NCBI GenBank assembly: GCA_963695855.1
Contig: CAVOHZ010000010.1
Span: forward strand, 1,440,001-1,504,000
DNA: 64,000 bases
Origin: an uncultured Nitrososphaerales archaeon
Lineage (GTDB): Archaea > Thermoproteota > Nitrososphaeria > Nitrososphaerales > Nitrososphaeraceae
Direction: 5' to 3'
Position numbers and translations under genes: made by a program. The notes beneath the pieces are model-generated. The model did not search any database. It was not told the origin of the DNA and worked only from the letters and a program-made list of their open reading frames with translations. This document shows positions 46,004 through 64,000 of the stretch, piece by piece; the stretch's first letter is position 1; each line of letters starts with the position of its first letter.

Positions 46004-46106
46004 GTAATTATATTAAACCTACACGATTTAAGGTTTATCATACTTTAAGTTTTTGATAGGTTTTAGATTAAAAGTGGTTTTCAAAAAATTATCAGTATAG
46101 AATAAT

Positions 46107-46454: not shown

Positions 46455-47066
46455 AAATTATAAAATAATTATAATTATTATTAAGAATTGCTAATACAAG
46501 AATATAATATTAAAAATGACTGACAAATTTTAGGAAATTTAAATTTCAATATAAAAAGATGCGGTATAAATATATGAATATAAAATATCTAGGATGATAA
46601 AAATAACTGGTTATAGTTCTTTTTTGCACAACTATTATTTTGTTAATTTTAACCAAAAAGAAGACCTCAGACTTATTTAAGAAATCCGTTTTTGTCAATT
46701 TATTGCTAAGCAAAGCAGTACAAAGAACAAATGATATTTTCGCAGCTTCTATTATATTTCCCTTAGTGGTTTCCTCTGTTTTTTATAAGAATGATATTAG
46801 CAGGAGGTATCTTATGAAGGCGTGTTCAGTGGCAGACCTAATATATCTTTATTTGATACATTGAACATTTTGTTGTAAGGGTCTGATTTATTATTTAATA
46901 ATTTTTACACTTTTTATACATTGTTCACCGTACCTTGTTTTTTCAGATGTCGTAATTAAATTGGACCGTTATATAAATAATCAAAGCGACGCCAGCTATT
47001 TGTTCTCTTAAACTCAATACAATTTTATAGTTAAAGGTAGATTTTTTTTGCTAGAATCGATTTGAG

Positions 47067-48095
47067 TTAACCTCCTATTGTATGCATAAGGTTTAAGGTT
47101 GGTTTAAGTGCATTTAGTCTAATTAATTTTACTATTCCCTCTGGTTTCTTTTTTTGACACATATATATATAATCCATTATATCTTTGTCTGTCTTACCAG
47201 TACGTATCAACGATTTTAAATCATATCCTTTTTGATCAAATAGACAAGTAAGAAATTTTCCATCAGATGTCAATCTTACCCTATCACAATTGCTACAAAA
47301 GGGTTCTGTAATAGAAGAAATGAATCCGATTGTTCCTTTACCGTCAGCGAAATTATAGATAGTCGCGGGGTCAGAACATTGGTAATTGCTATCTTTTAAA
47401 GGAAATATATCCATAAAATTAGAACTAATTTTGTTTATTATCTCGTTCTTGCTTACTACCAGATCATTGTTCCAAATACCTGTCCCATCAAGTGGCATAA
47501 ATTCAATAAACCTTACAAGTACGTTGTAGTCTCTTGCAAATTTTGCGAAATTTATTATTTCATCATCATTCCAATTTCGTATTACTACTGTATTAATTTT
47601 TATTTTTAATCCTAAATCCCTAGCCTTTTGAATTCCTTTTATAACCCGGTTCAAATTAGATATACCGTTGAGTGTTCTAAATCGCTCTTCACTGAATGTA
47701 TCAAGACTAATATTTAGGCTTGTAATTCCAGCATATGACAATTGATCTATTTTTTCTTCTAATAGCATACCATTTGTTGTCATACTGATAGTTTTTATTT
47801 TGCTGATCTTTTTTAGATCAGTAATAAGATTTTCTAGGCATGGTCTAAGTAATGGTTCTCCTCCAGTTATTCTAATTTTATTGATACCTAAATCTGCGAA
47901 AATTGATGTGATTCTTACAATTTCTTGAAAACTAAGAATTTCTTTATCTTCGAACCATTTAATATTATGTTGAGGCATACAATAGATACATTTCATATTA
48001 CACTTGTCTGTCACAGAAATTCTTAGTTTCCTAGCAACTCTGTCAAAATTATCTCTTAAAAGTAATTCGTTAACATCTCGTTCCAAATTATTCAC
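47067..48095 (-). CDS. moaA: GTP 3',8-cyclase (Moco biosynthesis, radical SAM)
   Basis: LRISVTDKCNMKCIYC, TGGEP, RFIEFMP, FC..C.R.RLT.DG...CL, C-terminal IGG. Confidence 0.95.
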   Translation of the reverse strand: MNNLERDVNELLLRDNFDRVARKLRISVTDKCNMKCIYCMPQHNIKWFEDKEILSFQEIVRITSIFADLGINKIRITGGEPLLRPCLENLITDLKKISKIKTISMTTNGMLLEEKIDQLSYAGITSLNISLDTFSEERFRTLNGISNLNRVIKGIQKARDLGLKIKINTVVIRNWNDDEIINFAKFARDYNVLVRFIEFMPLDGTGIWNNDLVVSKNEIINKISSNFMDIFPLKDSNYQCSDPATIYNFADGKGTIGFISSITEPFCSNCDRVRLTSDGKFLTCLFDQKGYDLKSLIRTGKTDKDIMDYIYMCQKKKPEGIVKLIRLNALKPTLNLMHTIGG

Positions 48096-48356
48096 TTGTA
48101 ACTTATTAGGTTATGAATTGTAAGATTTTCAAAAAAAAGATTGTTCCATTTCTCTCGGATATCATTAACTACTTTTTTCATACGAAGAATATTTTCATGA
48201 TGTTTTGTCACAGACTCCATACTATTCTTTACAATTAATTCTTATTATCTTTTTTTATGACTGTTAAGAATGTCTATGTTTGACAAGTTGTTTGTGAAAC
48301 TTACGTTTTAGAACCGAAGTTGTACCTTAAATTAAAGGATTTCGTATAAAAATGCG

Positions 48357-49688
48357 TTGCAAAAAGCGTCTTACATACCCAAAAATACACCTTATGAGAA
48401 CTTTCTGAACGCAATTCATAGTGATGACAGCAAGATTACGTATGGATATCATTTGAAAGGCTTCCTAAAATTCTGTGATTTTGACAATTACAAACAGTTA
48501 CTCGAGATTTCAGATAAGCAGAAGTTTCAAGCAATAAGGGAGTATATCGACCATAGAATTAACAAGGATAAGGTTTCCTATTCCAGTGTCAACCTGTCAA
48601 CTGCAGCAATAAAGTTATTTTATGAAATTAACGGGGTTGAAAGTATACCCAACTGGAAACAAATAACAAGACTTAAGGGTAAATTTAGACGTGTAGTAGA
48701 TGACGAACTTTATACTGATGAAGAAATAAAGTTATTGCTTGAACATGCTGACTTGACAGAGAAGGTTGCAGTCCTTACTTTGCTAACAAGCGGCATGCGT
48801 GTTGGTGCACTTGCAGGTTTGCGGTATAAAGATATCAAACCTGTGATTTTTAGAGATTTCAAATTTTACAGATTTGTACCTTATGGAGATGACTTAAATG
48901 AAAGGTATGTTACGTTCTGTACTCCTGAATGTGCTTCTATGATAGACATTTATCTCAAACACCGTAAAGAGAAGGAAAATGAGACACTGACAGATGATTC
49001 ACCATTTATCAAACATAAGACAAACTCTGTCTATGGAGTGAAGATGAAGGGGTTTTACAGTTCCAAGGGTCTTCAAAAAATGCTGGAACGTCTGAGATAT
49101 GACGCCAACATTGAAAGTAAGACTGCAGTAGAGTCGGGAAAACATACAGAGTCTGGAAGGATAAGAAAGCGTACAATGCGCGCACATGTTTTTAGAAAGA
49201 TTTTCAATACCAGATGTGTAGAAAGCAATGTTAACCATACTGTAAAGGAATCGTTAATGGGACATAAGGCAGGTTTGGGAATGGACGTGTCCTACTTTAG
49301 AGGAAGTAATATCAAAGAGTTAGCAGAATACTGGAAGGTTGTAGAATCATTAACGATAAGCAGAGAGAACAAACTATCGAAGAGACTCCAGGATAAAGAC
49401 AAGATACTAGAAATCAGACTGAAAGAGAGAGAAGATGAGATACAGGATTTATCTGCAAGAATAGAGAGATTAAGCGAAACAAGAGAACAGGAAATGGAAG
49501 CGGTTAACAGTCTAAAGAGTCAGGTCAAAGAGTTGGTGAAGGAGAAGAACGAGATAGAACGTAATTTTGTTGAAGTCGTACAGCACATACAAACCGGTTT
49601 TACTGACGTCATACAGAAGTCAGACGATTTGAGTAAAGAAGTAGAGAGACTAAAACGCACGAATAAGAAAAAAAGTATAAAAAAATAA
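48357..49688 (+). CDS. Tyrosine recombinase/integrase with C-terminal coiled coil
   Basis: TSGMRVGA, HVFRK, LMGH.......SY. Confidence 0.92.
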   Translation: MQKASYIPKNTPYENFLNAIHSDDSKITYGYHLKGFLKFCDFDNYKQLLEISDKQKFQAIREYIDHRINKDKVSYSSVNLSTAAIKLFYEINGVESIPNWKQITRLKGKFRRVVDDELYTDEEIKLLLEHADLTEKVAVLTLLTSGMRVGALAGLRYKDIKPVIFRDFKFYRFVPYGDDLNERYVTFCTPECASMIDIYLKHRKEKENETLTDDSPFIKHKTNSVYGVKMKGFYSSKGLQKMLERLRYDANIESKTAVESGKHTESGRIRKRTMRAHVFRKIFNTRCVESNVNHTVKESLMGHKAGLGMDVSYFRGSNIKELAEYWKVVESLTISRENKLSKRLQDKDKILEIRLKEREDEIQDLSARIERLSETREQEMEAVNSLKSQVKELVKEKNEIERNFVEVVQHIQTGFTDVIQKSDDLSKEVERLKRTNKKKSIKK

Positions 49689-49697
49689 AAAAATAGG

Positions 49698-49901
49698 TTA
49701 GAAAGAAGATTCGTCTATTTCCTCCTCGTATCCTAGCGCCCACTCCAAAGCGTGAATTAATCCAGTGATATAATTAAAGTCACGCCTTATTTCAGCAGAT
49801 GTATCCGAATCCGAACCGCTAATGCTAGTAGAATCCTGATGATCTTCCCGTACTTTGTAGTAATGGGATAATTTATCCCTAATTTCTTGTTCTGATTTCA
49901 T
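49698..49901 (-). CDS. Small hypothetical protein
   Basis: MKSEQEIRDKL...GLIHALEWALG. Confidence 0.65.
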   Translation of the reverse strand: MKSEQEIRDKLSHYYKVREDHQDSTSISGSDSDTSAEIRRDFNYITGLIHALEWALGYEEEIDESSF

Positions 49902-49945
49902 GCTCTCACTCTCTTTTAATTTAACTACAGATGTAACATCGGGAA

Positions 49946-50335
49946 TTAAAATGAATAGTCGTCGTTTTCCCAGGACTTGGGTGTTTTTACTATCATTGTT
50001 GTGGATTCTGTTGTTGCTATTACAATATCCTTCTTTACTAGTACGTCAGCAGGTAACTTTGGAACTTCCTTTATCGTATTGAATCTTATCGCGTACTCTA
50101 TCGCATAGAGGTGCTTACATTTCTCGCCTCTTGTCGAATTGTCGAAACATGAGCACCATTCAAACGAGGTAGGTTCAAATCTTACGAAATAGTACCTTCC
50201 GTCACTGCTTTCGGACTCGACATAAAAGGTGTCCTTGTTCTGTAGGCGGTACACTCGGCGGGATAGGGCCAGCACCCTACCCCGTCCTTCTCGTCTATTT
50301 TTCTTCTCAATTTTAGAAACTTCTGTTTGTTTCAT
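49946..50335 (-). CDS. SWIM Zn-finger protein with acidic DDYSF tail
   Basis: WCSC.D......CKHLYA; close homolog of 42453..42920. Confidence 0.85.
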   Translation of the reverse strand: MKQTEVSKIEKKNRREGRGRVLALSRRVYRLQNKDTFYVESESSDGRYYFVRFEPTSFEWCSCFDNSTRGEKCKHLYAIEYAIRFNTIKEVPKLPADVLVKKDIVIATTESTTMIVKTPKSWENDDYSF

Positions 50336-50476
50336 ATTTGTAATAATATAATACTTATACTTGATATATAATCATTATGCTATAATACCCTTTAGCATAT
50401 TTCGAGATACTTCCATATACTCCTCTATGTCTACAATATAATCTCTATATTATAGTATAGTTATAATAGTGGTACA

Positions 50477-50635
50477 ATGTTAATAGAAAATGAAGAATTG
50501 GAAAAGAGATCAACTATAGCAATCTCCGATGATTTGCGTAATGCCTTGAAGGATTTAGGTAAGAAGGGTGAGAGTTATGAAGATGTTATCTGGAAACTTG
50601 TAAACTTCTATAATGAGAAACAGCATAAGAAATGA
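50477..50635 (+). CDS. Small RHH-like regulator (52 aa, not in ORF track)
   Basis: RSTIAISDDLRNALKDLGKKGESYEDVIWKLV; stop overlaps the next start (ATGA). Confidence 0.75.
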   Translation: MLIENEELEKRSTIAISDDLRNALKDLGKKGESYEDVIWKLVNFYNEKQHKK

Positions 50636-50823
50636 CTACTACTACAATAGATAAAGAAAAGATACAAGAATTGATAAAAAAGTATCAAGAACATATTGAA
50701 GTACTAGAATGTAGAAAACCTGAAGATGTACCTAAACACCTACAATCACTTGCAACTAGTTTTGCGGGGATGGCCTTCAGTTTGAGGTTAATAATCAAAG
50801 ACTTGGAGGAATTATTGAAATGA
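50632..50823 (+). CDS. Hypothetical protein
   Basis: ATGA-coupled operon gene. Confidence 0.65.
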   Translation: MTTTTIDKEKIQELIKKYQEHIEVLECRKPEDVPKHLQSLATSFAGMAFSLRLIIKDLEELLK

Positions 50824-51080
50824 CTTCCCAAAATAATATTCCAGATGAGAATCAACCATTAGCAGTATTTCCAATACATGAAAGAACACTCTGTTGTATC
50901 GTTCCATGTGAAAGACCTGTAAGTGTCTATGTAACGCTCGATTATAATGTACATGTAAATTTTGGAGCACTTGGAGAACAGCAGCAGATAATGGTTCCAC
51001 TTTGCCAATTTCATTATAATAAAGCATGGAATGAAAATGAAAAAGATTTAGCAAATTCACTGAGTAAAGAAAAGAAATGA
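50820..51080 (+). CDS. Small Cys/His Zn-binding protein
   Basis: CC..PC...LC..H; ATGA-coupled. Confidence 0.65.
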   Translation: MTSQNNIPDENQPLAVFPIHERTLCCIVPCERPVSVYVTLDYNVHVNFGALGEQQQIMVPLCQFHYNKAWNENEKDLANSLSKEKK

Positions 51081-52024
51081 CTTCATACAAAAATGCTCCA
51101 ATACGAAAATGGAAGATGGATGAGTTAACCAAAAAACTCAAAGGTATTGAAGAACATGAAGGACGCAAGTTAACCCAAGTGGAAAAGATATATCATATAT
51201 TTGCACATACGTTCAAACATTATGATACTGAAGAAGAAGAAGAAACTAAAGGTGTATCAGCAAGAGAACTTATTTTAATTCTAAATATATCATATGATAA
51301 TTATCCTTATGGTTATGGTAGAAGTAATAAGATAACAACGCAGGACATAACAATGTCTGAAAATGGTTATGATTGGGCTGGTAAGCGTGTATATAAAGCA
51401 GTTCAAAATCTAAAATCAACTATTCAAAGATTTAAGGATTGGCAGGAAGATGGATTTAGTGGTCAATACCAAGATAATGATACTGCATTTAATATCTATT
51501 GTCTAAAAACAAAGAAGGGAAACTGGTACTACTACAACGTAATGAACGATAAAGATTTAGAAAAAATGAAGTTGCACAAAGCAAAAATGGCTTTAGGATA
51601 CCAGAAACATATCAGGAAATTAGATGAAGAATTAGACAAGATTGAATTAAACCCAGAAGAATACAAAAAGAAGAAAGAAAAAGAAGCAGCAGAATTAAAG
51701 AAGCAACAAAAAAGAAGGGTGATAAACACGTATAAACGACTAATGGAAATGGAAGGTAAACTAGGAAGAAAAAGTAGACATGATTATGTAGAAGAAATTA
51801 AAAAAAGATTATCATATATTACTACAAAAGAAGAAGATAATGAAGTTGAATTAGAACTTGAACAATATGCTGCAGAAATAGAAATAAAACAAATGAAAGC
51901 CGATTTGAAGGAACAACAGAAAAAAGAGAAGGAATTATGGGATAAAAAACCGCATGTAGATGTTTCATTGAATAAGAAAATGGAAGAATACGTTATTGAA
52001 GAAAAGGAAGGTAATAAGAAATGA
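51077..52024 (+). CDS. Hypothetical protein, possible winged-helix N-terminus plus coiled coil
   Basis: 315 aa; GVSAREL; K/E-rich C-half. Confidence 0.7.
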   Translation: MTSYKNAPIRKWKMDELTKKLKGIEEHEGRKLTQVEKIYHIFAHTFKHYDTEEEEETKGVSARELILILNISYDNYPYGYGRSNKITTQDITMSENGYDWAGKRVYKAVQNLKSTIQRFKDWQEDGFSGQYQDNDTAFNIYCLKTKKGNWYYYNVMNDKDLEKMKLHKAKMALGYQKHIRKLDEELDKIELNPEEYKKKKEKEAAELKKQQKRRVINTYKRLMEMEGKLGRKSRHDYVEEIKKRLSYITTKEEDNEVELELEQYAAEIEIKQMKADLKEQQKKEKELWDKKPHVDVSLNKKMEEYVIEEKEGNKK

Positions 52025-52105
52025 CTTTTTTTTGCTAGAAAAATAGCAATTTTCTTTGCTATTTTAATCAAAAATATTTTTATTATATTTCTCTATTAAA
52101 ATAAA

Positions 52106-52357
52106 TTGATTGGAGTGACAAGAAATAGTAAGTTTTTTGGTAATTATACCAGAACAGATCCAACGAACATTGTTAGAACTATGCAACTGTCCGAACAGAC
52201 GTTTCAGATGTTGAAAGAGCATGCTTCCCGGTATTACTCAACTCCCTCGTATGATGAAGTGCTTGTTAATCTGGTAAAGTTCTATGAACAGCACGAGGGT
52301 GCAAAACATTACACTCATTATAACAGTATCAATGCTAATATTGTGACTATCGATTGA
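52106..52357 (+). CDS. RHH-like small protein
   Basis: RTMQLSEQTFQML.......SYDEVL..LV.FYE. Confidence 0.7.
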   Translation: MIGVTRNSKFFGNYTRTDPTNIVRTMQLSEQTFQMLKEHASRYYSTPSYDEVLVNLVKFYEQHEGAKHYTHYNSINANIVTID

Positions 52358-52450
52358 CTAACTAACCAACCAATAATTAAATTAATTAAATAAATTAATA
52401 AAAAATAAAATAAAAAAAATAAAAAAAATTGATGATTATATTTAGGGTGG

Positions 52451-53131
52451 TTATCCTATAATGAATTCAACTCCTGCGTCTTCAAGACATTCTATCAAAT
52501 CATCAACAACTTCTGGATCTACACTAGGTAGAGCCAACCTGAAAGCATCTTCAGGAATGACTGATCCATCTTCAGGATTAACAAATAGTATACAAAATCG
52601 TTCGATCGATTCAACTCCAAATAGTTCTACAAAAGTGGTAATTTCGTCTGGAGATAGAAATTCTTCAAAACATTCTTCACATGTTCTTTGTGGAGTACTA
52701 GTTCTTATCTGTTCATTCGCATTAACATTTACACATATATTTACCAGGTTCTTGTTGAAGTTTATTTTATCGAAGCCATTTCCATTTTGTGCGTTTGCTG
52801 CGTCTGGACCTGCTTGTTCGTTTGCTGCTGCAGTAGCAGTAGTGTCTTCAGGTATTTGGGTAATATCTATACCATTTACATTTATGTTACTGTTAACACA
52901 GGATATTTTCTGGATGTCTGTATGAGAACTCTTTTTTTGATGGTTATCGTCATAACTATATCTATTGTCGTCATGGTAATAGTTATTGTCGTATCCGTAT
53001 TCATTGGCGTACAATTCCGCTTGTGCGTTTTCTATCATTGATGGGTTTAGAGCCAGCAATCCTGTCGCTAGTATTGCTCCTAGTATAGAAGCAAAAACTA
53101 TCTTTTTGCTGTTGTTATTACTATTGCTCAA
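52451..53131 (-). CDS. Secreted/surface protein (cargo)
   Basis: Signal peptide, Y/D-rich linker, CVNSNINVNG module, CEEC...C...C C-domain. Confidence 0.85.
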   Translation of the reverse strand: MSNSNNNSKKIVFASILGAILATGLLALNPSMIENAQAELYANEYGYDNNYYHDDNRYSYDDNHQKKSSHTDIQKISCVNSNINVNGIDITQIPEDTTATAAANEQAGPDAANAQNGNGFDKINFNKNLVNICVNVNANEQIRTSTPQRTCEECFEEFLSPDEITTFVELFGVESIERFCILFVNPEDGSVIPEDAFRLALPSVDPEVVDDLIECLEDAGVEFIIG

Positions 53132-53467
53132 TACATTGTTAAATACGAATTTATTATATCTATGGTTGGAAGGAACATTATCTAATCTTGTAATATTTCA
53201 ACATTCTGAATGATTGACTATAAGAAGAATAGCAATTGATCTACAAGTATAATATGAAAGAAAATTAGATATTAATACCATTAGTTGAGATAAAGAATGA
53301 ATATTCACCTACTATTGTGTATATCATCTGCCAACAATGACAGGAAAATTAGTAGTGTTGCCATAACTATAGATAGTAAAAATAATTACTAATTACTAAT
53401 CCTTTCATTTTTTTATTTAGTTACGAACTGAAAAAACAACGTACAAAAAAATAAAAAATAAGAATTA

Positions 53468-54148
53468 TTAAGAGTACTGTTTGTTCTGTTTCTGGACATC
53501 TGCATCTTTCCTTTCCTGCTGTTGCTTCTTATCGTACTCGTATCGTGGAGGCCCACCATTATACATTATCATAGTTATACATTCATCCCATGAAGAATTA
53601 ACAAACTGTTCAAAAGTAAATGAATCATTACGAATTGTTGGAGTTTTTACTAAAAACTTGATTTGATCTTTGTTATCATAAGTGGATTTTGCTATGATGT
53701 CATCAACCGCTTTCTTGCTGAATGGTACGTAGTAGACTTCATGCTGTCCTGTTCTATCGTATCCTATTATCTGGTCTCTCTCTATTACGGGCTCTAACTC
53801 CTGCTCCCAGTACTTGCCCTCTACATGATCTGCCACCGGTGCTACTTTACGGCCTTGCCAGTCCTTCCCATACCAATTCTCGAACCAGTAAAGGAATTCT
53901 TTCATCTCCCTTCTCTTAGAATTATAGTCAATTGCTCTAATGCGTACTATCCTCGTTATTTCTTTCTCTACTGGATACTTTTCTGCATCAACCAACATCA
54001 AAAAATGCTTGTTTTGATAATCTAGGTGCTCTGGAACGTCAAGACCATTCTTCCTGTAACTTTCTTCTGTTCTGTTATTCCAACCCTTCAAAATATCGGG
54101 TACTTTTTTCTTCTTTTGTTCTACGGGTACTGCTACTCTTCTAGCCAT
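53468..54148 (-). CDS. Conserved element hypothetical protein
   Basis: 226 aa; relic homolog at 32678..33533. Confidence 0.8.
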   Translation of the reverse strand: MARRVAVPVEQKKKKVPDILKGWNNRTEESYRKNGLDVPEHLDYQNKHFLMLVDAEKYPVEKEITRIVRIRAIDYNSKRREMKEFLYWFENWYGKDWQGRKVAPVADHVEGKYWEQELEPVIERDQIIGYDRTGQHEVYYVPFSKKAVDDIIAKSTYDNKDQIKFLVKTPTIRNDSFTFEQFVNSSWDECITMIMYNGGPPRYEYDKKQQQERKDADVQKQNKQYS

Positions 54149-54262
54149 AATAACCTCTTACTAATTCTTATCTTAGTCTTGAGAATATTTAAATGTATAT
54201 GTATATCTGTTTTGACAGCAAGACGGCAATCATTATAAACATGGAAATGAATATTAAATTAT

Positions 54263-54466
54263 ATGGCAACAAGTCAACAACTAATAATGAAGGAAGAAGA
54301 ACAGGAGGAGGAGGGGATCAGTAAGACCACGATTAGATTACCAGACGAGATGTTAAGGGAATTGAAACATTTAGCCATAGATGATAGGAAAACCTTGACA
54401 GAGTTAGTTACTGAAGCATTAAGCGATTATCTGAAAAAGAGAAAAAAATTAGCACAAAATAAATGA
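54263..54466 (+). CDS. Ribbon-helix-helix (CopG-like) regulator
   Basis: KTTIRLPDEMLRELKHLAID...TLTELV.EAL.DYL. Confidence 0.85.
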   Translation: MATSQQLIMKEEEQEEEGISKTTIRLPDEMLRELKHLAIDDRKTLTELVTEALSDYLKKRKKLAQNK

Positions 54467-54828
54467 ATTCTTGTTATTGAAAATTTAAGTAGTCAGAACT
54501 TAATAATATTAATACCACTGGCAATCTCTGTAGTGAGAAAACTAGTTCCGTTGATGAAAAGAATATCAGGCCTGCGTCCGACCGATATTCTAATATCATC
54601 ATCGTAGTACACGTTTTACCACTATCTAGAGTGTGTGGGCTCATTCAGTGGTGTTGGAGGGAGAAAGAAACAAATAATGAATGAATATCTGGTTGGTCAT
54701 TCGCTCCATGATGATGATTGACGGATATCTGAATATTTGTATTCTTTGTTGTAATCCTTCCATCTCTCTCTCCAACGGTTATTATTAGACAAAAAATTGG
54801 TATCTTTATGTTTCTTGTTGTATGTAGG

Positions 54829-55308
54829 TTATCCTTCTTCGTTTGTTGATTCGTATCTTATCAATCTTGATCCTTTCTCTAGATGTCTTCTAACATCTGG
54901 GTCGTCTTCCAGATTTACCCTATTTAATCTCCTGTTAATAGTCTTTAACTTTCTAGGCTTGATAAAGTGTTCTACCGTTAGCCTTTTGCTGTCGTATATC
55001 GTTTCTTGGACGTCTCTGATGCCTGCTATCTGAGATTCCTGTTTGGCGTGTACCGTTGCCACTATTAGGCCACAGCGATAGCACTGTACCCAGTTCTCAG
55101 AATCTTGGGGTTTATCACCGTTAATAAGTTCTGAATCATGATAGATACGTTCCTTTAGTACATTATAATGTCCATAAGATTCACAATTAGGACAGTAACT
55201 ATGAGAGAAGTCTTCGCTATCTGAGTAATAATAATTGTTATCAGCAGTAGTTACAAAATAATCTCTTCTCTTTTTAATTCCAGGCATATATCTTCTATTG
55301 TTCTCCAA
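54829..55308 (-). CDS. Zn-ribbon protein
   Basis: CPNC...QCYRCG. Confidence 0.7.
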   Translation of the reverse strand: MENNRRYMPGIKKRRDYFVTTADNNYYYSDSEDFSHSYCPNCESYGHYNVLKERIYHDSELINGDKPQDSENWVQCYRCGLIVATVHAKQESQIAGIRDVQETIYDSKRLTVEHFIKPRKLKTINRRLNRVNLEDDPDVRRHLEKGSRLIRYESTNEEG

Positions 55309-55484
55309 TCATGCATGATATAGCCGCAATCCCAACACTGTAACCAGTCATAAGAGTCCTGTGGTAATTCGCCATTAATTAATTCCTCTTTTCTGTATAG
55401 ACGGGGAATTAATTGAACATGAATTCCTGCTTCTAGACAACGAGGACACCAACTTGTTTCACTTTCCTTACAATTTCCTGGCAT
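55251..55484 (-). CDS. Zn-ribbon protein, tandem paralog of 54829
   Basis: CPRC...ELING..PQDS..W.QC..CG shared with 54829. Confidence 0.7.
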   Translation of the reverse strand: MPGNCKESETSWCPRCLEAGIHVQLIPRLYRKEELINGELPQDSYDWLQCWDCGYIMHDWRTIEDICLELKREEIIL

Positions 55485-55503
55485 TTATCTATCCACCTCT
55501 TTA

Positions 55504-56928
55504 TCACTCCCTCAGTATCACACCTCTTAAAGATAAACGTAAGGAGTCTAAAAAATCTGAGTATATGGTGATATTCTTGTCAAGATCGAACTCGGTACCG
55601 TACGCAGATTTTAAGGATAGTATCAGTTTCTGGTACTTGGGATCTATTGCAATCTTCTTCTTTGATAGAAGATTATATGTCCATTCTAACATTGATTTGT
55701 GATTTTTTTGAAAGGAAATAGGAATAATATAATTATCATAAATTGATACGTCTTCGGATCTTTCCCATGTTAAAGATTCCCCGAACCTGGATTTTAATTC
55801 GTTGGTGAAACCTCTATTGGCAGAATCTACGAAAAACAGGCAGTTGGGTATCTGTGTATGTATTTGAAATATTCTGTCCGCCACGACTGAAGGACTTGCC
55901 TTATCATGTTCTTCCGATAGTATGACCCTTACTACCTGGTTCTCTAAATCTATCTCACAAACGGTTATGGCTGTAATAGACGAACTAAAGCCTGGATCAA
56001 TACCTGCAGGATGCAGACATCCATGATTGATAGGCAACTCGCTGTATTGCACACCTAACTGGACCGCTGTATCGATATCCTGCAAACTGAAGATATTGCC
56101 TATACGACCCTGGTATTTGAGACAGTATTCACGTTCAAAGTATGCCTCATTCTTTTCTCGTTCAATGAAAGCAGAATCGTATATCTTGTTAAGGCCTACA
56201 GTATAATGGAGGAATATTTTATGAAAGAAGTCTTTGAATATTTCGTTTCTCTCTATACGATCAAATAATCCTAATGGTTTATTCGGTGTACTTGCCACTA
56301 TAATTTTACACTTGCTTTTCTCCTCGTATGCCTTGATAACATATTCTAGTTCAAATTGTTCTGCAGGATCAAAAAAGTCAGCCTCATCAATGAACAGATA
56401 AGAAACGTCCGTGTAGCCTCTAAGGTCCTGTATTCTCTTCGTAGGAAATACCTTAATCCAGGTTTTGCCTAGCATTAATTCCGTGTACTTGGATTCAAAA
56501 TGAACATTAGGAAAATTGCGTTCAAATAAATTCTCTAATCTAATCTTTATGTTATTACTGAAATCTTCCCGTGTCCCAGATACCAAAAATATAGACTTAC
56601 CATGTAGTTTGTCAGAAGATAAACAGGACCACGCCAAATAGCGTAAAATCAGAGTTGTGAGGCCTATACCCCTAGCCTTTTTTACCCCTACATGCTGATT
56701 CCCTTCGATTGCATCAATGATATCTTTTTCATAGGAAAAAAGTGGGTATTCCTTGTTATTCTTGAGTGGCCATCCAATCAGACAATTAAAACAATCATCA
56801 ACATGGTTATGATTTTCGATTTCAAAATAGAAGGGTTTACCTTTGAATATCTCTAATTGGATAGGTTCAGCCGATTCAGCGAAACCTATTGAAAGAACAT
56901 CACTTGCCTTCTTGAAGCAGTTCAGCAT
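55504..56928 (-). CDS. terL: Terminase large subunit (packaging ATPase plus RNase H-like nuclease)
   Basis: VKKARGIGLTT (Walker A-like), LFIDEA (Walker B), ASTP (motif III), GIDPG, FVDSA, SDFLDSLR. Confidence 0.85.
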   Translation of the reverse strand: MLNCFKKASDVLSIGFAESAEPIQLEIFKGKPFYFEIENHNHVDDCFNCLIGWPLKNNKEYPLFSYEKDIIDAIEGNQHVGVKKARGIGLTTLILRYLAWSCLSSDKLHGKSIFLVSGTREDFSNNIKIRLENLFERNFPNVHFESKYTELMLGKTWIKVFPTKRIQDLRGYTDVSYLFIDEADFFDPAEQFELEYVIKAYEEKSKCKIIVASTPNKPLGLFDRIERNEIFKDFFHKIFLHYTVGLNKIYDSAFIEREKNEAYFEREYCLKYQGRIGNIFSLQDIDTAVQLGVQYSELPINHGCLHPAGIDPGFSSSITAITVCEIDLENQVVRVILSEEHDKASPSVVADRIFQIHTQIPNCLFFVDSANRGFTNELKSRFGESLTWERSEDVSIYDNYIIPISFQKNHKSMLEWTYNLLSKKKIAIDPKYQKLILSLKSAYGTEFDLDKNITIYSDFLDSLRLSLRGVILRE

Positions 56929-57356
56929 GTTCTAGTTTTGCCTTTATCTGTGCTATGACTGGTGTACCCAGACTTAGTTCCTGCAGCAGTTTAACATTCT
57001 CTCTAATTTCATATCTCAATTTCATTATTAATTCTTGATTCTTTACATGCGTAGGTTTATTTTGTTCTAAGTAATCACGAATTGTATCATTCTGTACCAT
57101 CTCAACCACTTCAATTATTTGCTGATGCTTGACTACAAAGCCGACTCTGGAAAAGTAGGACATCCATTGATTGGCGTACTGCCCTGAATCTACCTGTTTC
57201 TTCCTGCGGTAATATGTCTCTACTGATATCTGCTTTCCAAGTCTGGCATGTATGTATGTATGCTAAGGCTTCTTTCTCAGATAAACCGTAATTTACGGTA
57301 TCCGCTACCAATGGCATAAGTATTTGTTTCTCTTTGGCTGTGAAACTTCCTCCCAT
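56900..57356 (-). pseudogene. TerS-like HTH protein split by one extra 4-bp unit in an (ATGT)n run
   Basis: Removing 4 bp at 57248-57262 gives one 150-aa ORF: LSEKEALAYIHARLGKQISVETYYRRKK...WMSYFSRV; overlaps the TerL start. Confidence 0.7.
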
Positions 57357-57397
57357 TTACTTCGTCTGCACCTCGTACCTTGACAAATTAACTGTTA

Positions 57398-58480
57398 TCA
57401 TTTTTTATTTAAATATTCAATCAGTTTTTCCCTACGCATTGGCGGGATTTGTTTGTTCGCTGCAATCTGTAACGCTCTCTTTATTCTGTGGTTGTAATTG
57501 ACTGATCTATCCAACTTTTCCATTTCATTGCATTTGTCTAACCACTCTCTAATTATTTTAAATGATTTCTCAAATTCCTTTTTCTTGACTACTATAAGGT
57601 AAGGTGCTAAGACAAGATCAATCGTTCGCTTTCTGCAATCTTTAATTGGTGCATTTAATAACTTTTCAATCCATTCATAATAATTTGAATCAAATAAATT
57701 ATTTGGTTTACGATTTTTCCATATTTTTTCATCTTCTAATCTTTTGTTTAATTTCTTCTTGATTAGATAACCTTGGAATTCTATTATTAACGCCTTGGTT
57801 ACTCTGGGCCTTATACCATTCCACTTCTGCAATATCTTAACCTGTTTATTACGTTTGTAGTTTATGGAGCCTGGGATCCTTAACAAGCAGGACCTAAAAG
57901 AAGGATTGTGTGACTTGTCCGCTTTACCATTCGATAGAAAATCTTTATAGAATCTTAGGAATTGTTCAGAAGGCTTATCGCCGTATTCGTTGAATTCCTT
58001 GATTCCCTCCAAGGCGGGACATTCTACTGGCTGTATTACATGGTATCCGCCCCCGCTGTGTAGGACCGTAGGGCTAGCCGAATCGCCTAACCATTCTTTG
58101 ATATTCTTCAAGGTTCTATCAAGTGCAACCCGTAAACTTTTACAAGATTTGAAACCTTGTAAATCTAAATCTATGAATATTAAATCAGGTTTCCAGAATA
58201 AACCCCCTGTTTTCAGGTCCGAATAGTAAAAGGCGTTAATTCTGCAATCTTCATAATTGGATTCTTTAAAGTAGTCTAACGCTTGTTCTTTCGAATTAAC
58301 TTCTTTCTGCACCATTGTTTTAGGAGTCATTATGGTTCTTGGGAATACTGGACTCGAAAAATGGGATAAAAGAAAGTCTAAACCCTGTGAAGGTGTGAAG
58401 GGTGTGAAGGCCCCTAGGATAGGGGGGTAGGTGTTTTTAGAACTTTTTTGTTCTATTTTTGCAGCAGAAGCAGTGGTCAT
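57398..58480 (-). CDS. Archaeo-eukaryotic primase (AEP) with PriX-like C-terminal domain
   Basis: IFIDLD (DxD), SGGGYH, LLRIPGSIN; WIEKLL..PI.D.RK......LAPYL. Confidence 0.8.
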   Translation of the reverse strand: MTTASAAKIEQKSSKNTYPPILGAFTPFTPSQGLDFLLSHFSSPVFPRTIMTPKTMVQKEVNSKEQALDYFKESNYEDCRINAFYYSDLKTGGLFWKPDLIFIDLDLQGFKSCKSLRVALDRTLKNIKEWLGDSASPTVLHSGGGYHVIQPVECPALEGIKEFNEYGDKPSEQFLRFYKDFLSNGKADKSHNPSFRSCLLRIPGSINYKRNKQVKILQKWNGIRPRVTKALIIEFQGYLIKKKLNKRLEDEKIWKNRKPNNLFDSNYYEWIEKLLNAPIKDCRKRTIDLVLAPYLIVVKKKEFEKSFKIIREWLDKCNEMEKLDRSVNYNHRIKRALQIAANKQIPPMRREKLIEYLNKK

Positions 58481-58985
58481 TCCCAGGGATTCCCCCTAGG
58501 TACCAGTTGTGATTTACGCCAAGGTTTTTCATTTACAACAATAAATAATTCTGTTCTGTTTAAGTCTTCGATATACTGCAGGGATGGATGTAACGGTTGT
58601 TTAGGGTGATTGCTATGACAGTGTCTATTGTAATCGTATAGGGTTATGAACTCACTATTGAAACTTGGACAGTTTTGATGGTGACACCTTAACCTTTTAC
58701 CTTCCTTCAAGTGTTCAAGAATCTTTTGTCTGTTCTCAGAATCAAGATAACCATAACTAAAGAATGAAGGTGCTCCTGCTTCCCTTTCCCTTGCAGATAA
58801 TTCCTTCTTTTGCTTGGGTGTTAGTGTCAACGTAGGATTTACCAAGGTGGACTACCCTCCCGCCATTCGCCTTTCTCCCCAAATTGATAGTGTATCTCAT
58901 CCGCCGCTTCGGCTCCCTCGTCACTTTTTTCAAAATCAGGGGTACCCCCTTCCTCAGATGTCTTCACACTATTCACGCCTTCACC
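58386..58985. other. Candidate replication origin: two inverted triplets of NGTGAA(G/T)R iterons
   Basis: 58386-58410 plus TGTGAAGG x3; 58985-58961 minus GGTGAAGG/CGTGAATA/TGTGAAGA; same 8 then 9 bp spacing; each followed 10 nt later by AGGGGG. Confidence 0.6.
58477..58845 (-). CDS. C2H2 Zn-finger protein
   Basis: C....C.....F.....Y..H....HP; overlaps the primase start. Confidence 0.7.
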   Translation of the reverse strand: MVNPTLTLTPKQKKELSAREREAGAPSFFSYGYLDSENRQKILEHLKEGKRLRCHHQNCPSFNSEFITLYDYNRHCHSNHPKQPLHPSLQYIEDLNRTELFIVVNEKPWRKSQLVPRGNPWE

Positions 58986-60789
58986 TTCCTCTTCGGGCTC
59001 TGATTCTGACTCTTCATCATCATCTTCTGATTCTTCTGATGATGATTGAGTATGATTGAGTAGTTGTTGTTGTTATTTCCTTAACAATTATTCTGGTTTT
59101 ATCATTCTCTATATCCGACTTTACCAGTTCCTTAATTACGGTACGGTCAAATACCAAGATGTTTCCTTTATCGCCATGCTTTATACTTGCACCAAAGCAA
59201 TCACAAACCATGCCGGATATCGTTGTCCTGTATAAAGTCCCATAATCGTCTGTATGAAATTCATTAGGCTTATGCAGGTCTGGCAGTCCTGGAATCTCGT
59301 TGATTATTGCCTTCCAAAAGTCTAGAGAAGATACTTGATTCGTATTCTCGGTTAATTTATCAATTATTGGCAGTAGAACGGATTCGATTGATGATTGTTT
59401 TTTATTATTCTTGATGTCCAAAAATGTTTGGAGCGTCTCAACTACTTCATTCTGACATTTGCATCCATGAAAGAGTTGGACGCAGTATTTTACAAGTTGC
59501 CTATCCCTTCCTTCAACTCCTATATCTAAATCTGGAATCATCTCCTTGAAATGCATTAATCTGTAAACCAGCAACAACTTTCGAAAGTTCATAATCTCCT
59601 GCAGCAATCTCTTATTATCGGGTCCGCCTGTGTTAGTAGGATTCAGGACTTCCAGGATATCATGTTTTATACTTCCCTTGAAACAGTTGATAGAAAAGAT
59701 TCTCGAATTAACACCTTTTGCAATTGATTGATTCAGTGACCTTTCAGATATAATTATTTTAGGACAGTATGTAAAGTGGCGTTCAGATTTTGATGTGTAT
59801 TGGTTGATTTTAGGAGTCCATCCTCCATATGAGAAACCCGTCTTCAATACTGCCATTAATTCAGGCGACTTGTCTATCTTGTCAGCCTCTTCCAGTACCA
59901 TGGTACACTGCATAGACTCCACCATTCCTAGCGATCTAAATAAGTTGGGTGCGCTTGGGTCTGTCATTACTGCGGCCCTATACGCTAACCCCCTAAGTGT
60001 CTCTGCAATAGACGTCTTACCGCTTCCATTACCACCAACCAGATAAAGATAATGAGTTGTTGAGAACCTATCTTGAAAGTGTGAGGTGATTATGTTTATT
60101 GCTATTAATTTTAATTTGTGTGGTAACTGGTTGTTATATCTAGAAACTATTTTGTAACATGTCTTATAGAGATAATCTCGGTCTATGTCGTTATCTTCAA
60201 TGAACCTGGCGATACCGTTAATCTCATCCAGACTATCAAATTCATAAGGTAAGTGTGGACATTCTTCTATTGCCGGAGGTACTAGGATTCTAGTGGCCTC
60301 TTCTATCTTATCAATTCCTTCAAATGTTCCTGTATTATTGTTGAATCTTATGTATGTCGCGAATCCTGCAATAAACACAGATTCATGCAGTTCACCTCTT
60401 CCCATCTCGGAGTATTTGAAAGTTGAAATGAGTTGCTTTGGTTTTTCTTCGTCTTCCTCTTGTGTCTGTTCTTTAGACTTATTATTACTAGTGTTATTAG
60501 GAGATGTTAAAATATCCTCATTATCGTTCAGGAATCTGTAAAATATTGACCTCTGTGTCTTATCGGTGTACCCATATACCTGGGCTTGGTCCCACACTAT
60601 CTTGATATTACGTGGCCAATCATCTATTATCGGTGTAAATACTATATCGGCGTTTATCTTTCCATTTAATGATATTTTTACACGGTTTCTATCAGGATAA
60701 TAAAACCCCTCTTTAATCAATTCGCTATTCTTGACTTCTGGACTTTGCTTTAATTCTCTAACGTTATTATTTTCTTCGTTGGTAGTCAA
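58839..60789 (-). CDS. AAA+/P-loop replication helicase-like ATPase; a 10-bp duplication at 59043-59062 removes the acidic tail (current stop 59020)
   Basis: LYLVGGNGSGKT, VLEEAD, SR arginine finger; the other frame continues SSEESEDDDEES...PPW-stop at 58839, overlapping the next start. Confidence 0.75.
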
Positions 60790-61043
60790 CTGAAAAACAC
60801 CCCTTCTAGTAGCGCTTTACCAGACATGATTTCGTAATTGTACTTTATTCCGCTATCTTTACAAACCCAACACGGACATTTGGACCTGGTAATTATTGTC
60901 TTTCTACTACCATTGTTAGTTTCTTGTGTAAACTGACTTACTTTAGGTAAGTTTAATAAATTGTTTTGGGTATCAATAATCACAAGTTCGCCATTACTCG
61001 TTTGTCCACTGGATTTCTTGCCAGTGGCCTTTTTTATCCTCAA
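60786..61043 (-). CDS. Hypothetical protein (CPCWVC), first gene of the replication operon
   Basis: Stop overlaps the helicase start (TTGA). Confidence 0.55.
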   Translation of the reverse strand: MRIKKATGKKSSGQTSNGELVIIDTQNNLLNLPKVSQFTQETNNGSRKTIITRSKCPCWVCKDSGIKYNYEIMSGKALLEGVFFS

Positions 61044-61167
61044 ATTTTGTTACGCCCTCCGACCGATAATATTATGTCTAACAGTGTACCTAATCATCGG
61101 TTGACCTAGGACCAGCAGAGCCAACGATAATCCTAGGCCGCCGGAGGGGGTGCTAGCGTAATAAATT
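61042..61167 (-). ncRNA. Predicted three-way-junction structured leader RNA
   Basis: Stems CCCTCCG/CGGAGGG, CCTAGGA/TCCTAGG, ACCGATGAT/ATTATCGGT (G-U pair only on minus), outer TTACG/CGTAA. Confidence 0.5.
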
Positions 61168-61179
61168 CGCAAATATTTG

Positions 61180-61210
61180 CATTTTTTGACATTTTTTGAC
61201 ATTTTTTGAC
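61180..61210. repeat. (CATTTTTTGA)x3 direct repeat
   Basis: Direct reading. Confidence 0.9.
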
Positions 61211-61358
61211 GAACAATTGCAGCACAATCGCAAAATACAGTACAAACCTTTAAAGGTGAATTTTTACTATCTTTCATTGACGTTCACTTCTGGTAGCGGT
61301 GCCGGTTGCTGTCGTCGTCCGTTGTTGCTGTCGTGCGTTCGCTTCGAATCACGATATT

Positions 61359-61389
61359 GGCTTTGGCCGAGGTAATGGGCGGCCAAGCC
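61359..61389. terminator. GC-rich hairpin followed by TTCTTTT near the right end of element B
   Basis: GGCTTTGGCCG...CGGCCAAGCC. Confidence 0.4.
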
Positions 61390-61934
61390 TTCTTTTAATA
61401 ATATTATCATCCTTTACTTTCAGTCTCCAATGGTTTTGATGTTTTCTCTAAAAGTTGGAGTTACAACATCATTCAAACTATCCTATGATGTTCCCATGTT
61501 TCTGAGTCTTTGAAAATTTATATCGTCTACAAGTATGTGATGCGTTTTTTTATTATGTTTTGTTTGTTGAGAAGTAGTAATAATCGTACTCATAGTTAAA
61601 AATATTAAGAAGTAACTTACTTATTAATTATAGTTTTTGATTGATTTTTTGTCTATTTACCCATGTTAGGGGTACAAATTTCAGTCACAATCTATAAATA
61701 CGGAACAACCAAAGAACTGCTAAATGAGAACATAAACCAAGACGGCTCCTAACTTACCATGATAAGAACATAGGAAACATATCCTAACAAAATAAACAAT
61801 AATAACATAAGAAAAATAATCTCTTGCTCACAATTTAATGTCAAACTTTTAATGTAGACTATTGGTTTACTAAAAGCGCCAAAAAAAATGTTAGCAAAAA
61901 AGATAATTGATTAAAAGATATATAATATGTTTTA

Positions 61935-62321
61935 TTATAGGTGAAGTAAAGTATCAACTGGTTGGATGGAGATCACACCAATCTTTTTTTCACTCTTGTC
62001 ATTTATATGTTTAAGTTTTTGTACTAACTCCTCTAGAATATCTGACTGTGCTATGGTTACTATAGTCTTGCGATTTGAGGATATAGTAGCAGTTTGTCCT
62101 CCTGCTTTTCCTGACCTTATTTTTTGCTTGGACTGTCCATAACCATGCGAGTCATATAATGTGGCCTCTAAGTTTAAACTCTCAATTCCTGAAATTATTT
62201 CATCAACTTGTTCGGGACTAGCAAAAATTTCTATCTTTTTTAAACCTGCTTTAATTTTATTTTCATCTGTCTTTTCAGATTTGTCTATTTCGAAAGGTAA
62301 AACAGCTTTTTTATCTGTCAT
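61935..62321 (-). CDS. Divergent P-II (GlnB/K-like) signal protein
   Basis: LKKIEI.......VDEI......T.....GYG, G.ISIQPV C-terminus. Confidence 0.7.
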   Translation of the reverse strand: MTDKKAVLPFEIDKSEKTDENKIKAGLKKIEIFASPEQVDEIISGIESLNLEATLYDSHGYGQSKQKIRSGKAGGQTATISSNRKTIVTIAQSDILEELVQKLKHINDKSEKKIGVISIQPVDTLLHL

Positions 62322-63437
62322 TATAAAAATATATAATTACAATCTAAATAAAGTATTTGTTTATAAAATTTTTCATATTTTTTGTACCCCTCACAGCGGT
62401 TACTTGGATATTGCTACTCGTTAAAATTTATTATTCTAGTTATCAGCAGATTTCCATATAACTTGAATACTTTGTCATGATTTCATTAAATTCCGTCTAT
62501 CTATCAATAACAAGAAAACCCATCATTTCTCTAGTATTAGTATATATAGAAATGCACGTCTAAAAATAATTTATAATTCTAGATTTAAAAACAGTTCTTT
62601 TACTTCTTCTAGTTGCTTATGGCGTGTTTCGACCAAACTCAATCCTCAATGCTATATTTATCAAGGATATCTAAATTCTTAATCATATTAATCCAGTCCT
62701 GACTTATCGTGAAAAAATTAAACGGATCCAATATGTATTTTTTTATTTATCGATTAGTCACATCCAACGCAGACGACGAGGATATATTGCTTAAGGAAAG
62801 TATTGCCGAGTTTTAATCATACCAGTTTGTGAATGTTCTATCTCCGTAAATTTTCGGCAGCAAAAAATTGTCAATATATTCAGAATAACAAATACCGGAA
62901 AACCACAAGTATTTCACATCCTGTTTTCAGTATATTTCTCTATATTGTTGTTAATTAATATTCTACAGTTCTTGTTTCCATTTTTCAACTTTGGGTATTT
63001 ACTATTATTGTGATTTTACCTCTCAACTCAAAACTAACTATTTTTTTGTCATTTTATTTATTGTTGCTACTTTTGATAATAGTAATAATAATTTCTTTCG
63101 TTATTTTTCTACTAGAACTCTAACAACCCTACAATTATGTCGTCAAATCAATCTAGGTTACGATGCCTCTCACTATGTCTTCTTAACCATTGAGTCTCTT
63201 CATTTAACTGGATTAATCTGATTTCTTTAGTACTAATAGCAGATATATGTTAATAGTACTGATTGTATTAGGTATATTTTTTATTTTTAGGAAATCATTT
63301 CTTATTCTTATTATCTATATATAGTCAAGATAATTAATTACTGTGATTCATACACCTAAATATTTTCTATATCATGATTACTAAGACAAACCCAGCTAAA
63401 ATTTTTATACATTGATCAAGCAAGAAAAGAGGATTAT

Positions 63438-63815: not shown

Positions 63816-64000
63816 TAATTAATCATTCTTTTTGCGCAAGTAATCTAATGCTTTATCCTTATTTTTTTAGGGTTTCAAGTTCCTGTTAATTTTCCTATTT
63901 TTTTGGATTCTATGTTAGACGTTTTATCCTTATCAATATGTTCCTTAATTGAGGATAACACTGGATTGAACTATAAAATCTTGCAAAAGCCGGGTATCGA

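Follow-up and report, generated by a model that had tools for sequence, protein, structure and literature searches.

Is every gene for a large terminase subunit (TerL) the mark of a tailed virus? Terminase is regarded as a defining feature of complete tailed viruses, and TerL serves as a virus marker in provirus-finding programs and virome surveys. The question was raised by a 64,000-nucleotide stretch of a Nitrososphaerales genome of 3.55 Mb and ~31% GC (G000:C10:1440001-1504000; hereafter the window, whose coordinates are used unless a contig is named), in which a sequence-only reading had placed, at 48300-61400, an integrative element that encodes TerL and no recognizable capsid. We analyzed this element (copy A) together with a paralogous element, copy B, at C10:1520800-1532457. 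Copy A is integrated, spans 48307-61693 (~13.4 kb) and is very probably a member of a conserved family of capsid-less, terminase-carrying elements. The sequence-only reading had gone further and proposed a satellite family with its own full terminase; a widespread capsid-less family with both TerL and the small terminase subunit (TerS), under purifying selection, was indeed found, and the TerS-like gene of copy A itself turned out to be broken.

The terminase of A is encoded in a leftward gene run. TerL is an intact protein of 474 amino acids (aa) (55504..56928, minus strand) that matched the TerL profile phrog_2 with an E-value of 4.2e-22 over residues 60-416. It has no Pfam match itself, its homologues carry PF03237 (TerL of locus L084: 4.9e-5, 23.5 bits versus a cut-off of 22), and the TerL family profile matched T4 gp17 (3ezk) weakly (E 0.0064). 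In a 17-sequence alignment, the columns K84, G87, G89, D181-E182, S213-T214-P215, D311, D368 and D458/D461 were invariant or near-invariant, and all of the invariant motif columns are present in the TerL of A. We take these columns to be the Walker A motif, the Walker B motif, the coupling motif and the nuclease aspartates, which would give A both ATPase motifs and three acidic RNase-H-like residues. Downstream of TerL follow a 77-aa Zn-ribbon protein (55251..55484, minus strand) and its 159-aa paralogue (54829..55308, minus strand); the latter is 30% identical to a 139-aa protein of L084 (E 2.6e-7), and its counterpart follows TerL in virus contigs. The leftward run is completed by a 226-aa protein, o226b (53468..54148, minus strand), a homologue of which lies just past a capsid-like gene in tailed-virus contigs.

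Next to TerL lies the gene that the sequence-only reading had described as a TerS-like helix-turn-helix protein (56900..57356, minus strand; family TerS2). Its TerS-like character was retained, and its integrity was not: in A it consists of two overlapping open reading frames (ORFs; 57111-57356 and 56900-57163), with a frame slip at about 57245-57256 within a short ACAT repeat. Since the homologues in four other copies (B, E, I and G012) stay a single ORF of 146-151 aa, we consider the gene of A to be broken. One 604-base metagenome contig, possibly from the genome's own assembly sample, spans the frameshift identically. A TerS2 homologue is located directly upstream of TerL in the virus contig L091, and copies D, G and H carry a different small protein upstream of TerL (F3/TerS1 family, 163-173 aa, weak HTH_38 match).

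No virion gene was recognizable beside this terminase. Scanning 20 element ORFs with Pfam and PHROGs gave no portal, capsid, protease or tail match, in agreement with the sequence-only reading; neither an HK97-fold capsid protein nor a portal was found among them, and no unassigned ORF of at least 400 aa is left in the element. The whole genome contained no match to PF05065, PF04860 or phrog_267, and tblastn of the genome detected no match to any virion protein of the related viruses, including the L050 and L084 portal candidates. Sequence searches frequently fail to recognize the virion proteins of archaeal viruses, and Pfam and PHROGs missed the portal and capsid proteins of the related virus contigs, so A might be an autonomous small virus with its capsid and portal among the unrecognized proteins (o226b, the Zn proteins and small ORFs). 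The two largest unassigned ORFs bear on this explanation. A set of 5.8 billion proteins contained 15 close homologues of o226b, a profile search extended the family to 417 representative clusters, and 28 members scanned with Pfam belonged to no family, with one stray SHOCT match. Its AlphaFold model (pLDDT 84.3, pTM 0.75) showed a long five-stranded antiparallel sheet with helices alongside. That so confident a model lacks a known fold is compatible with a novel virion protein, but the model gave no HK97 or portal match: no Foldseek hit reached E<=0.001 in PDB or BFVD, the best VIA Z score was 2.7, and the ESM Atlas returned nothing usable. Within the reach of these tools, the model suggests that o226b has neither an HK97 nor a portal fold. 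The other large ORF, of 315 aa, yielded a low-confidence AlphaFold2 model (pLDDT 66.4, pTM 0.45) that consists of helices and includes a coiled coil; this model gave only generic long-helix matches (Z<=7.8), no Foldseek match at E<=0.001 and no capsid or portal match, which is weak evidence of absence. To our knowledge, every virus that uses TerL needs a portal of ~400-600 aa and an HK97-fold capsid protein, whereas the conserved non-replication genes of the elements comprise only TerS, TerL, the Zn proteins (77-159 aa), a ribbon-helix-helix (RHH) regulator and o226b. In addition, the related viruses encode a capsid-like protein separately from their o226b homologue. We therefore regard an autonomous virus as extremely unlikely.

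Is A, then, a solitary remnant? In its own genome, TerL has about 12 loci (17 match rows), none of them outside contig C10, and a full-length intact TerL is present in four copies, namely A, B (62% identity) and two more (46%). The gene order of B is the same as that of A: NTPase, Zn protein, primase, TerS, TerL, two Zn-ribbon proteins, RHH regulator, o226b, SWIM-like protein and integrase. Among 101 sampled genomes of the family Nitrososphaeraceae, 67 contain TerL relatives, often many per genome, and 16 of the 18 genera are represented; this tally takes in two unpublished genomes (G035 and G077), without which it stands at 65/99. Genomes G091, G038, G076 and G027 yielded 47-101 first-look TerL candidates each, which suggests a very high copy number of elements or their fragments in certain lineages.

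Twenty genomic TerL loci were fetched with their flanks. At 19 of these, TerS and TerL were in most cases accompanied, as far as the fetched flanks reach, by an integrase, primase or o226b, and in none by a recognizable virion gene. At the remaining locus (L050 in G079), TerL is followed by a gene of portal size and by a capsid gene (phrog_267, 6.7e-8); we take this locus to be the published provirus Nvie-Pro1, the Pro-Nvie1 record (FR725450) being the sole phage-database match of the TerL of A (31% identity). The capsid and portal proteins of L050 were each found in one of the 101 genomes, namely in the provirus itself. The capsid-less order TerS-TerL-Zn-o226b-integrase recurs in A, B, C, G012 and, in another genus, G083. 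These results support the notion that A is not the product of a one-off deletion and represents a widespread, conserved capsid-less family with TerS and TerL.

One further TerL-like gene of this genome has an unusual structure. A frame of 828 aa at C10:478547-481033 (minus strand; L008:61-2547) combines a TerL-like ATPase half (phrog_2, 2.3e-16 over residues 66-344; DEAD, 2.3e-6) with ~480 further residues that have no match. Upstream of it is a gene of the TerS1 family, and an integrase is located ~4 kb away. Judging from its domain matches, it may be a TerL ATPase with a new C-terminal domain.

Soil metagenomes gave a concordant picture. JGI metagenome contigs contained 80 soil TerL loci, of which 18 were in an element context (o226b, integrase, primase or NTPase, without a portal or MuF label), 15 in a virus context and none in both, 47 loci being too short to classify by their neighbors. 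Thirteen metagenome contigs carry TerL (36-47% identical to that of A) together with o226b, and none of them has a portal or MuF label; most have the Zn protein in between, and seven have an integrase beyond. In many of these thirteen, TerL is separated from the Zn-o226b pair by unrelated, oppositely oriented genes, such as those for a TIR and pentapeptide-repeat protein or a CrtC-like protein; this stretch is a variable cargo slot. One such cargo protein, of 465 aa (L176:9732-11129), combines TIR (2e-10) with pentapeptide repeats (1.9e-21) and is defence-like.

Where TerL does stand beside virion genes, the contigs are of a different kind. An IMG/VR scan with the single TerL protein returned nothing, and an alignment-based scan returned 10 TerL loci. 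G115 (59.7 kb) and G117 (59.4 kb) are rated 100% complete by CheckV; their GC content, like that of G116, is 33.5%, and in all three the identity of TerL to that of A is 47-48%. The G115-type order starts with TerS (143 aa), TerL, a Zn protein (30% identical to the 159-aa Zn-ribbon protein of A), the portal-sized p506 (506-525 aa) and a MuF-like minor head protein (phrog_115, 1.5e-8), and continues with a methyltransferase, p381, p158, p387, an 86-aa ORF and a 222-aa o226b homologue (29-30% identity, E 1e-16 to 1e-19); ~20 kb further on lies a 1018-aa tape-measure-like protein (phrog_167, 3.1e-6). The ESM Atlas look-alikes of p387 (score 0.98) are clusters with Phage_capsid_4 and Phage_capsid, so p387 is probably capsid-like, a lead rather than proof. 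Homologues of the element primase and of the element integrase were each present in 0/5 virus records. As judged by homology, what A shares with the G115-type viruses is exactly TerL, the Zn protein and o226b, and nothing else. With TerS2, which has its virus homologue in L091, these proteins form a partial packaging module homologous to that of viruses, as expected of a satellite. A 357-aa gene of G115 (L097:4725-5798; G115:C1:21724-22797), apparently a host-derived auxiliary gene, is 59% identical to the chromosomal C10:1432399-1433553 of this archaeon; it fits a host in or near the same genus and can help in assigning one.

We then asked how the element and virus terminases are related. A quick IQ-TREE analysis of 50 TerL rows (LG+G4, SH-aLRT support only) recovered a clade of 24 rows (support 100) that splits into 11 element-only rows (97) and a sister group (94) composed of 11 virus TerLs, A and its relative from G012. 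The starred branches imply at least 5-6 context switches over the whole TerL tree. Holding the 13 element rows of the 24-row clade together was not rejected by an approximately unbiased (AU) test (p 0.133), this group having been named after the tree was seen. The dN/dS ratio was 0.17 (D versus E) and 0.36 (A versus B, a mosaic pair) for TerL, 0.17 (A versus C) for o226b and 0.23 (A versus B) for the Zn protein; in most other pairs dS was saturated, with the reading frames still open. By this comparison of coding sequences, TerL, the Zn protein and o226b are under purifying selection.

These data bear on the explanation that A is a deleted provirus in which TerL is the last surviving viral gene, as was proposed in 2019 for the element NitKor-E1, the terminase of which was termed "likely a relic" in the available text of Krupovic et al. 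2019 (PMC6563490). The sequence-only reading had named portal and capsid genes next to a homologous TerL as a sign of such a deletion. Portal and capsid genes do adjoin TerL homologues, both in the provirus of G079 and in contigs of IMG/VR; decay is also evident in many of the copies that this genome contains, and the TerS-like gene of A is broken. However, the viruses in question lack homologues of the element integrase and primase, and no locus combines both contexts. Virus capsid and portal genes occur in 0-1/101 genomes of the host family (p387 in none, p506 in one) versus 67/101 for TerL. Since the viruses have neither the integrase nor the primase, their capsid and portal genes are all but missing from the host family and no locus shows both contexts, a deleted provirus fits poorly. 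The recurrence of one capsid-less order in A, B, C, G012, G083 and the 13 metagenome contigs, over TerL identities of 36-68%, also argues against it, as do the element-only TerL clade of 11 members, the dN/dS values well under 1 and the relatives at the same site, described below, that hold the backbone without the module. We consider this explanation very unlikely.

The borders of A and its insertion site provide a further view of the module. The extent of ~13.4 kb was deduced from DNA homology to B and from the resumption of flank homology to genomes G048 and G106, which together set both ends. In blastn, DNA shared by A and B opens at 48307 and closes at 61693, and the flank homology to G048 and G106 (94% identity) picks up again at 61686-61689. 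The left end (48307..48356), just upstream of the integrase, matches C10:1532408-1532457, and the right end (61656..61693) has 38 bp in common with the end of B (84%). The element therefore ends at about 61690, ~300 bases beyond the right end at 61400 given by the sequence-only reading. The empty site could not be read in these two closest relatives because both of their sites are occupied by a related element. In G048 (L078, C26:1-13300) and G106 (L079, C21:1-12700), the MoaA-adjacent site holds a backbone element with an integrase (87% and 83% aa identity to that of A over the best segments), the SWIM-like protein and o226a, a second 226-aa protein of A; in G048, a primase (59%) and part of an NTPase are present as well. 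Both sites lack TerL, any Zn protein and o226b, and no TerL occurs elsewhere in the G048 genome. Since a backbone without the module occupies the shared site, the packaging module represents a gain or loss on a common backbone. The MoaA-adjacent site thus appears, from these alignments, to be a recurrent integration spot at which the terminase module comes and goes.

The backbone itself is plasmid-like. The tyrosine integrase (443 aa; 48357..49688, plus strand) was confirmed by PF00589 (1.2e-7, 32.1 bits versus a cut-off of 27.1) and phrog_1 (3.3e-16), and matched the XerA-like family NF040815 at 3.9e-17, under the cut-off. It is followed by a small ORF and a SWIM-like Zn-finger protein, both leftward (49698-50335); the latter (129 aa; 49946..50335, minus strand; SWIM 0.0069, under the cut-off) has 8 tblastn matches in the genome and adjoins the integrase in other copies too. 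Its start and that of the following rightward genes form a divergent gene pair around 50335-50477, consistent with the divergent regulatory switch that had been proposed. On the other side of o226b, an RHH (CopG/Arc-like) regulator of 67 aa (54263..54466, plus strand) matches PF01402 (5.7e-7) and Arc-like PHROGs.

The replication genes lie at the far end. From right to left, the leftward run consists of an 85-aa ORF, the NTPase, a 122-aa Zn protein, the primase, the TerS-like gene, TerL, the 77- and 159-aa Zn-ribbon proteins, the RHH gene on the opposite strand and o226b. The 85-aa ORF (60786..61043, minus strand) is conserved in B. The 589-aa protein at 59020..60789 (minus strand), which had been called a helicase, is a P-loop NTPase by a sub-threshold AAA_21 match (1.8e-4, 22.1 bits versus a cut-off of 27), with paralogues of 84% and 55% identity; it had no PDB sequence match at E<=0.1 and no NCBIfam match, and its PADLOC rows lacked a passing stretch. 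From its position alone we infer a putative replicative helicase. The 122-aa Zn-binding protein between NTPase and primase (58477..58845, minus strand), read as a Zn finger from the beginning, is 86% conserved in B and had no family match in Pfam, PHROGs or NCBIfam. The primase (360 aa; 57398..58480, minus strand) had been described as an archaeo-eukaryotic primase (AEP); profile searches added a C-terminal PriX domain (PF18689, 5.8e-9; NF033412, 4.1e-17, 62.4 bits versus a cut-off of 50; PDB PriX 4wyh, 9.4e-4), and the N-terminal AEP part was recognized by eye from its motifs only. An integrase combined with its own replication module, here the PriX-domain primase and the putative helicase, is a further satellite feature of A.

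Together, these results are best explained by a family that joins a plasmid-like backbone (tyrosine integrase, SWIM-like and RHH regulators, P-loop NTPase, Zn protein and AEP/PriX primase) to a small module (TerS, TerL, Zn-ribbon protein and o226b) derived from, or shared with, the head-morphogenesis genes of ~60 kb tailed viruses that infect these hosts. What the module does is less certain. We give about even weight to a satellite-like element that packages itself into the capsids of G115-type viruses. Such an element would stay integrated until a related tailed virus infects, and would then excise and replicate by means of its own primase and NTPase. Its TerS would pick out the element's own DNA, and its TerL, which falls in a strongly supported clade with virus TerLs (47-48% identity), would dock on the helper portal and fill helper capsids with element DNA, while the Zn protein and o226b could help at the terminase-portal or head-completion step. 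The more specific proposal that these elements are the first satellites of archaeal head-tailed viruses, with a new design in which TerS, TerL and two head-module proteins capture helper procapsids at packaging, is plausible, if somewhat short of an even chance.

The module may instead serve a role other than self-packaging, either as an interference or defence device, in which a decoy TerS and TerL with the head-module proteins would disrupt the packaging of infecting G115-type viruses and so benefit the host, or as a nuclease-ATPase for concatemer resolution or non-capsid transfer. Such a role would account for the conservation and purifying selection seen in TerL, o226b and the Zn protein although no capsid gene accompanies them, and it agrees with the failure to find a helper provirus in this genome and with the defence-like TIR and pentapeptide cargo between TerL and Zn-o226b in another member. 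Bacterial satellites interfere with their helpers, as stated in the available text of the preprint by Zhou et al. (2025). Conversely, PADLOC gave no real defence-family match for 10 element proteins, the rows obtained being P-loop matches (E 7.7e-5 to 0.0095); TerL has beside it a TerS from one or the other of two families (TerS1 and TerS2), which suggests that DNA is recognized for packaging; and all of the ATPase and nuclease motif columns of TerL are kept. Moreover, interference and self-packaging are not mutually exclusive in known satellites. We hold a role other than packaging to be the less favored option, with a modest share of the probability. A separate reading of the locus as a defence island was dropped, there being no PADLOC family match.

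Several observations weigh against self-packaging by a satellite. We know of no characterized satellite that has TerL and lacks a capsid gene. Since its TerS-like gene is frameshifted, copy A itself is probably no longer self-packaging and, judging from its sequence, crippled in this respect. In B, both the NTPase and the integrase are split, and the TerL copies of this genome other than the four intact ones comprise one 828-aa fusion, the remainder containing stops or being fragmentary. From the broken TerS of A, the split genes of B and the stop-ridden TerLs, we conclude that decay is common in the family. No candidate helper provirus was detected in this genome by tblastn or by PF05065, PF04860 and phrog_267 scans. 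The TerL of A may be closer to virus TerLs than to the element-only clade, and its position in the tree is compatible with recent capture and recent loss alike. The virus portal and capsid proteins are too divergent for PHROGs and Pfam to catch, and a divergent structural gene may be present among the small ORFs. Direct repeats of att type, which often lie at a tRNA gene and flank site-specific integrations, were likewise not seen: no repeat of at least 10 bp was found between the ends or over 46000-64000, a search that short or imperfect att sites would escape, a tRNA scan of the window returned 0 genes, and Rfam at the gathering threshold returned 0 matches over 46000-64000. The ends therefore rest on homology. 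Four sequencing runs in which the element occurs, all with short soil-metagenome contigs, contained no joint for a circle, a concatemer or an empty site. The best DNA run contained 41% of the sampled words, and no RNA run was listed. Three small skips of 98-141 bases were seen in these runs, each in a single contig.

The remaining genes of A are mostly variable. Four rightward genes of 52, 63, 86 and 315 aa occupy 50477..52024 (plus strand). By tblastn, the 63-, 86- and 315-aa ORFs have no paralogue in their own genome, and the 315-aa protein, specific to copy A, may be cargo or a regulator. They are followed by o83, a small conserved protein of 83 aa (52106..52357, plus strand) with 7 tblastn matches and weak Pfam matches that recurs in family elements, and by o226a (52451..53131, minus strand), a predicted secreted or membrane-anchored cargo protein with 36 tblastn matches in its own genome and an N-terminal hydrophobic segment read from the sequence. 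The o226a family consists of paralogues of ~225-360 aa with this N-terminal segment and N/D/Y-rich repeats, often in tandem within family elements (e.g., C10:1774744-1779518). The neighbors of A, provisionally named from their translations, are a MoaA-like gene on the left (47067-48095, minus strand) and a P-II-like gene on the right (61935-62321, minus strand).

Other parts of the window contain traces of the same family. To the left of A, a decayed sister element at 35367-44276 carries at least three TerL fragments, o226a, o83, a SWIM-like protein and a 460-aa integrase; its TerL fragments are closest to B, D and E (76-92% over the fragments), and it stands back to back with A around ~4 kb of host genes. 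The sequence-only reading had counted three more relics in the window: this one is a clear decayed copy, and the others are only small family-gene patches at 9154-10151 and 22258-24708. In addition, the segments 3905-4566 and 25794-26459 match a 219-aa ORF of G012 (L053:1896-2555) at ~79-81%, the first of them being broken into three frames.

In soil ammonia-oxidizing archaea (AOA), most genomic TerL genes appear to sit in capsid-less integrative elements, which affects estimates of lysogeny. If the elements are satellites, helper-satellite biology would extend to archaeal tailed viruses, in a design (own TerS and TerL without a capsid) undescribed in bacteria. Their copies can number in the dozens in one genome, and in nitrifying archaea they would then provide a principal route for moving genes and for interfering with viruses. 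Concrete candidate helpers are available in the G115-type contigs (~60 kb), and the o226b family, with 417 clusters, no Pfam family and a confident unmatched model, is a well-defined target in the search for a new head-module function.

Among bacterial satellites, phage-inducible chromosomal islands (PICIs) usually encode TerS only, capsid-forming PICIs (cfPICIs) encode TerL together with capsid and portal, and P4 has no terminase. We know of no described satellite type with a complete TerS and TerL and no capsid or portal gene. Like A, PICIs (including SaPIs), P4-like elements and cfPICIs are ~10-15 kb long and have an integrase, their own primase or replication genes, regulators, cargo and a partial packaging module, homologous to that of tailed viruses, without a full virion set (cf-PICI and P4 are cited in the available text of Zhou et al. 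2025); they differ in having bacterial hosts, whereas A is archaeal and carries TerS and TerL without capsid or portal. In archaea, according to the available text of the same preprint (10.1101/2025.02.15.638363), pSSVi and pSSVx were the only satellites known before the spindle-virus SRCEs. These and the haloarchaeal SRCEs resemble A in combining a plasmid-like replication module with an incomplete virus morphogenesis module, but the viruses that they exploit are spindle-shaped, and their genes include one for an AAA+ ATPase and/or capsid protein and, as described there, none for a terminase. NMV2S, a putative satellite from Asgard archaea that has been linked to an archaeal head-tailed virus, has the same two-module composition, and the available text of its 2026 preprint (10.64898/2026.08.12.739948) does not mention a terminase. 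Pro-Nvie1 (FR725450) and G115/G117 share with A a homologous TerL (31% and 47-48%), the G115 type also the Zn protein and o226b; in contrast to A, they possess portal-like, MuF-like, capsid-like and tape-measure genes and lack the element integrase and primase.

Elements of this kind are barely known in archaea, NitKor-E1 of Ca. Nitrosopumilus koreensis AR1 being the single precedent. Our literature search found no description of a TerL-carrying capsid-less element family in Nitrososphaeraceae; the supplements of Krupovic et al. 2019 and of a 2025 AOA virome preprint, which lay outside the search, may list such elements, and the main text of the latter (10.1101/2025.08.23.671958) contains 0 occurrences of "terminase," "TerL" or "satellite." As described in the available text of Krupovic et al. 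2019 (PMC6563490), NitKor-E1 has a tyrosine integrase, TerS and TerL and no other virion gene; its authors called its function "enigmatic," considered the terminase a likely relic and noted that terminases were unreported in non-viral elements. With NitKor-E1, a combination of TerS, TerL and integrase that lacks other virion genes was already on record, which makes the idea less novel than the sequence-only reading had assumed. Copy A matches that description, by which alone the two were compared, in being a thaumarchaeal integrated element with a tyrosine integrase, adjacent TerS and TerL genes and no further recognizable tailed-virus gene. NitKor-E1 is a single element that was judged a relic, whereas the family of A is multi-copy and present in 67/101 genomes. 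Features of this family beyond what is described for NitKor-E1 are a primase and an NTPase of its own, two more genes related to those of viruses (for the Zn protein and for o226b), identified virus relatives and purifying selection.

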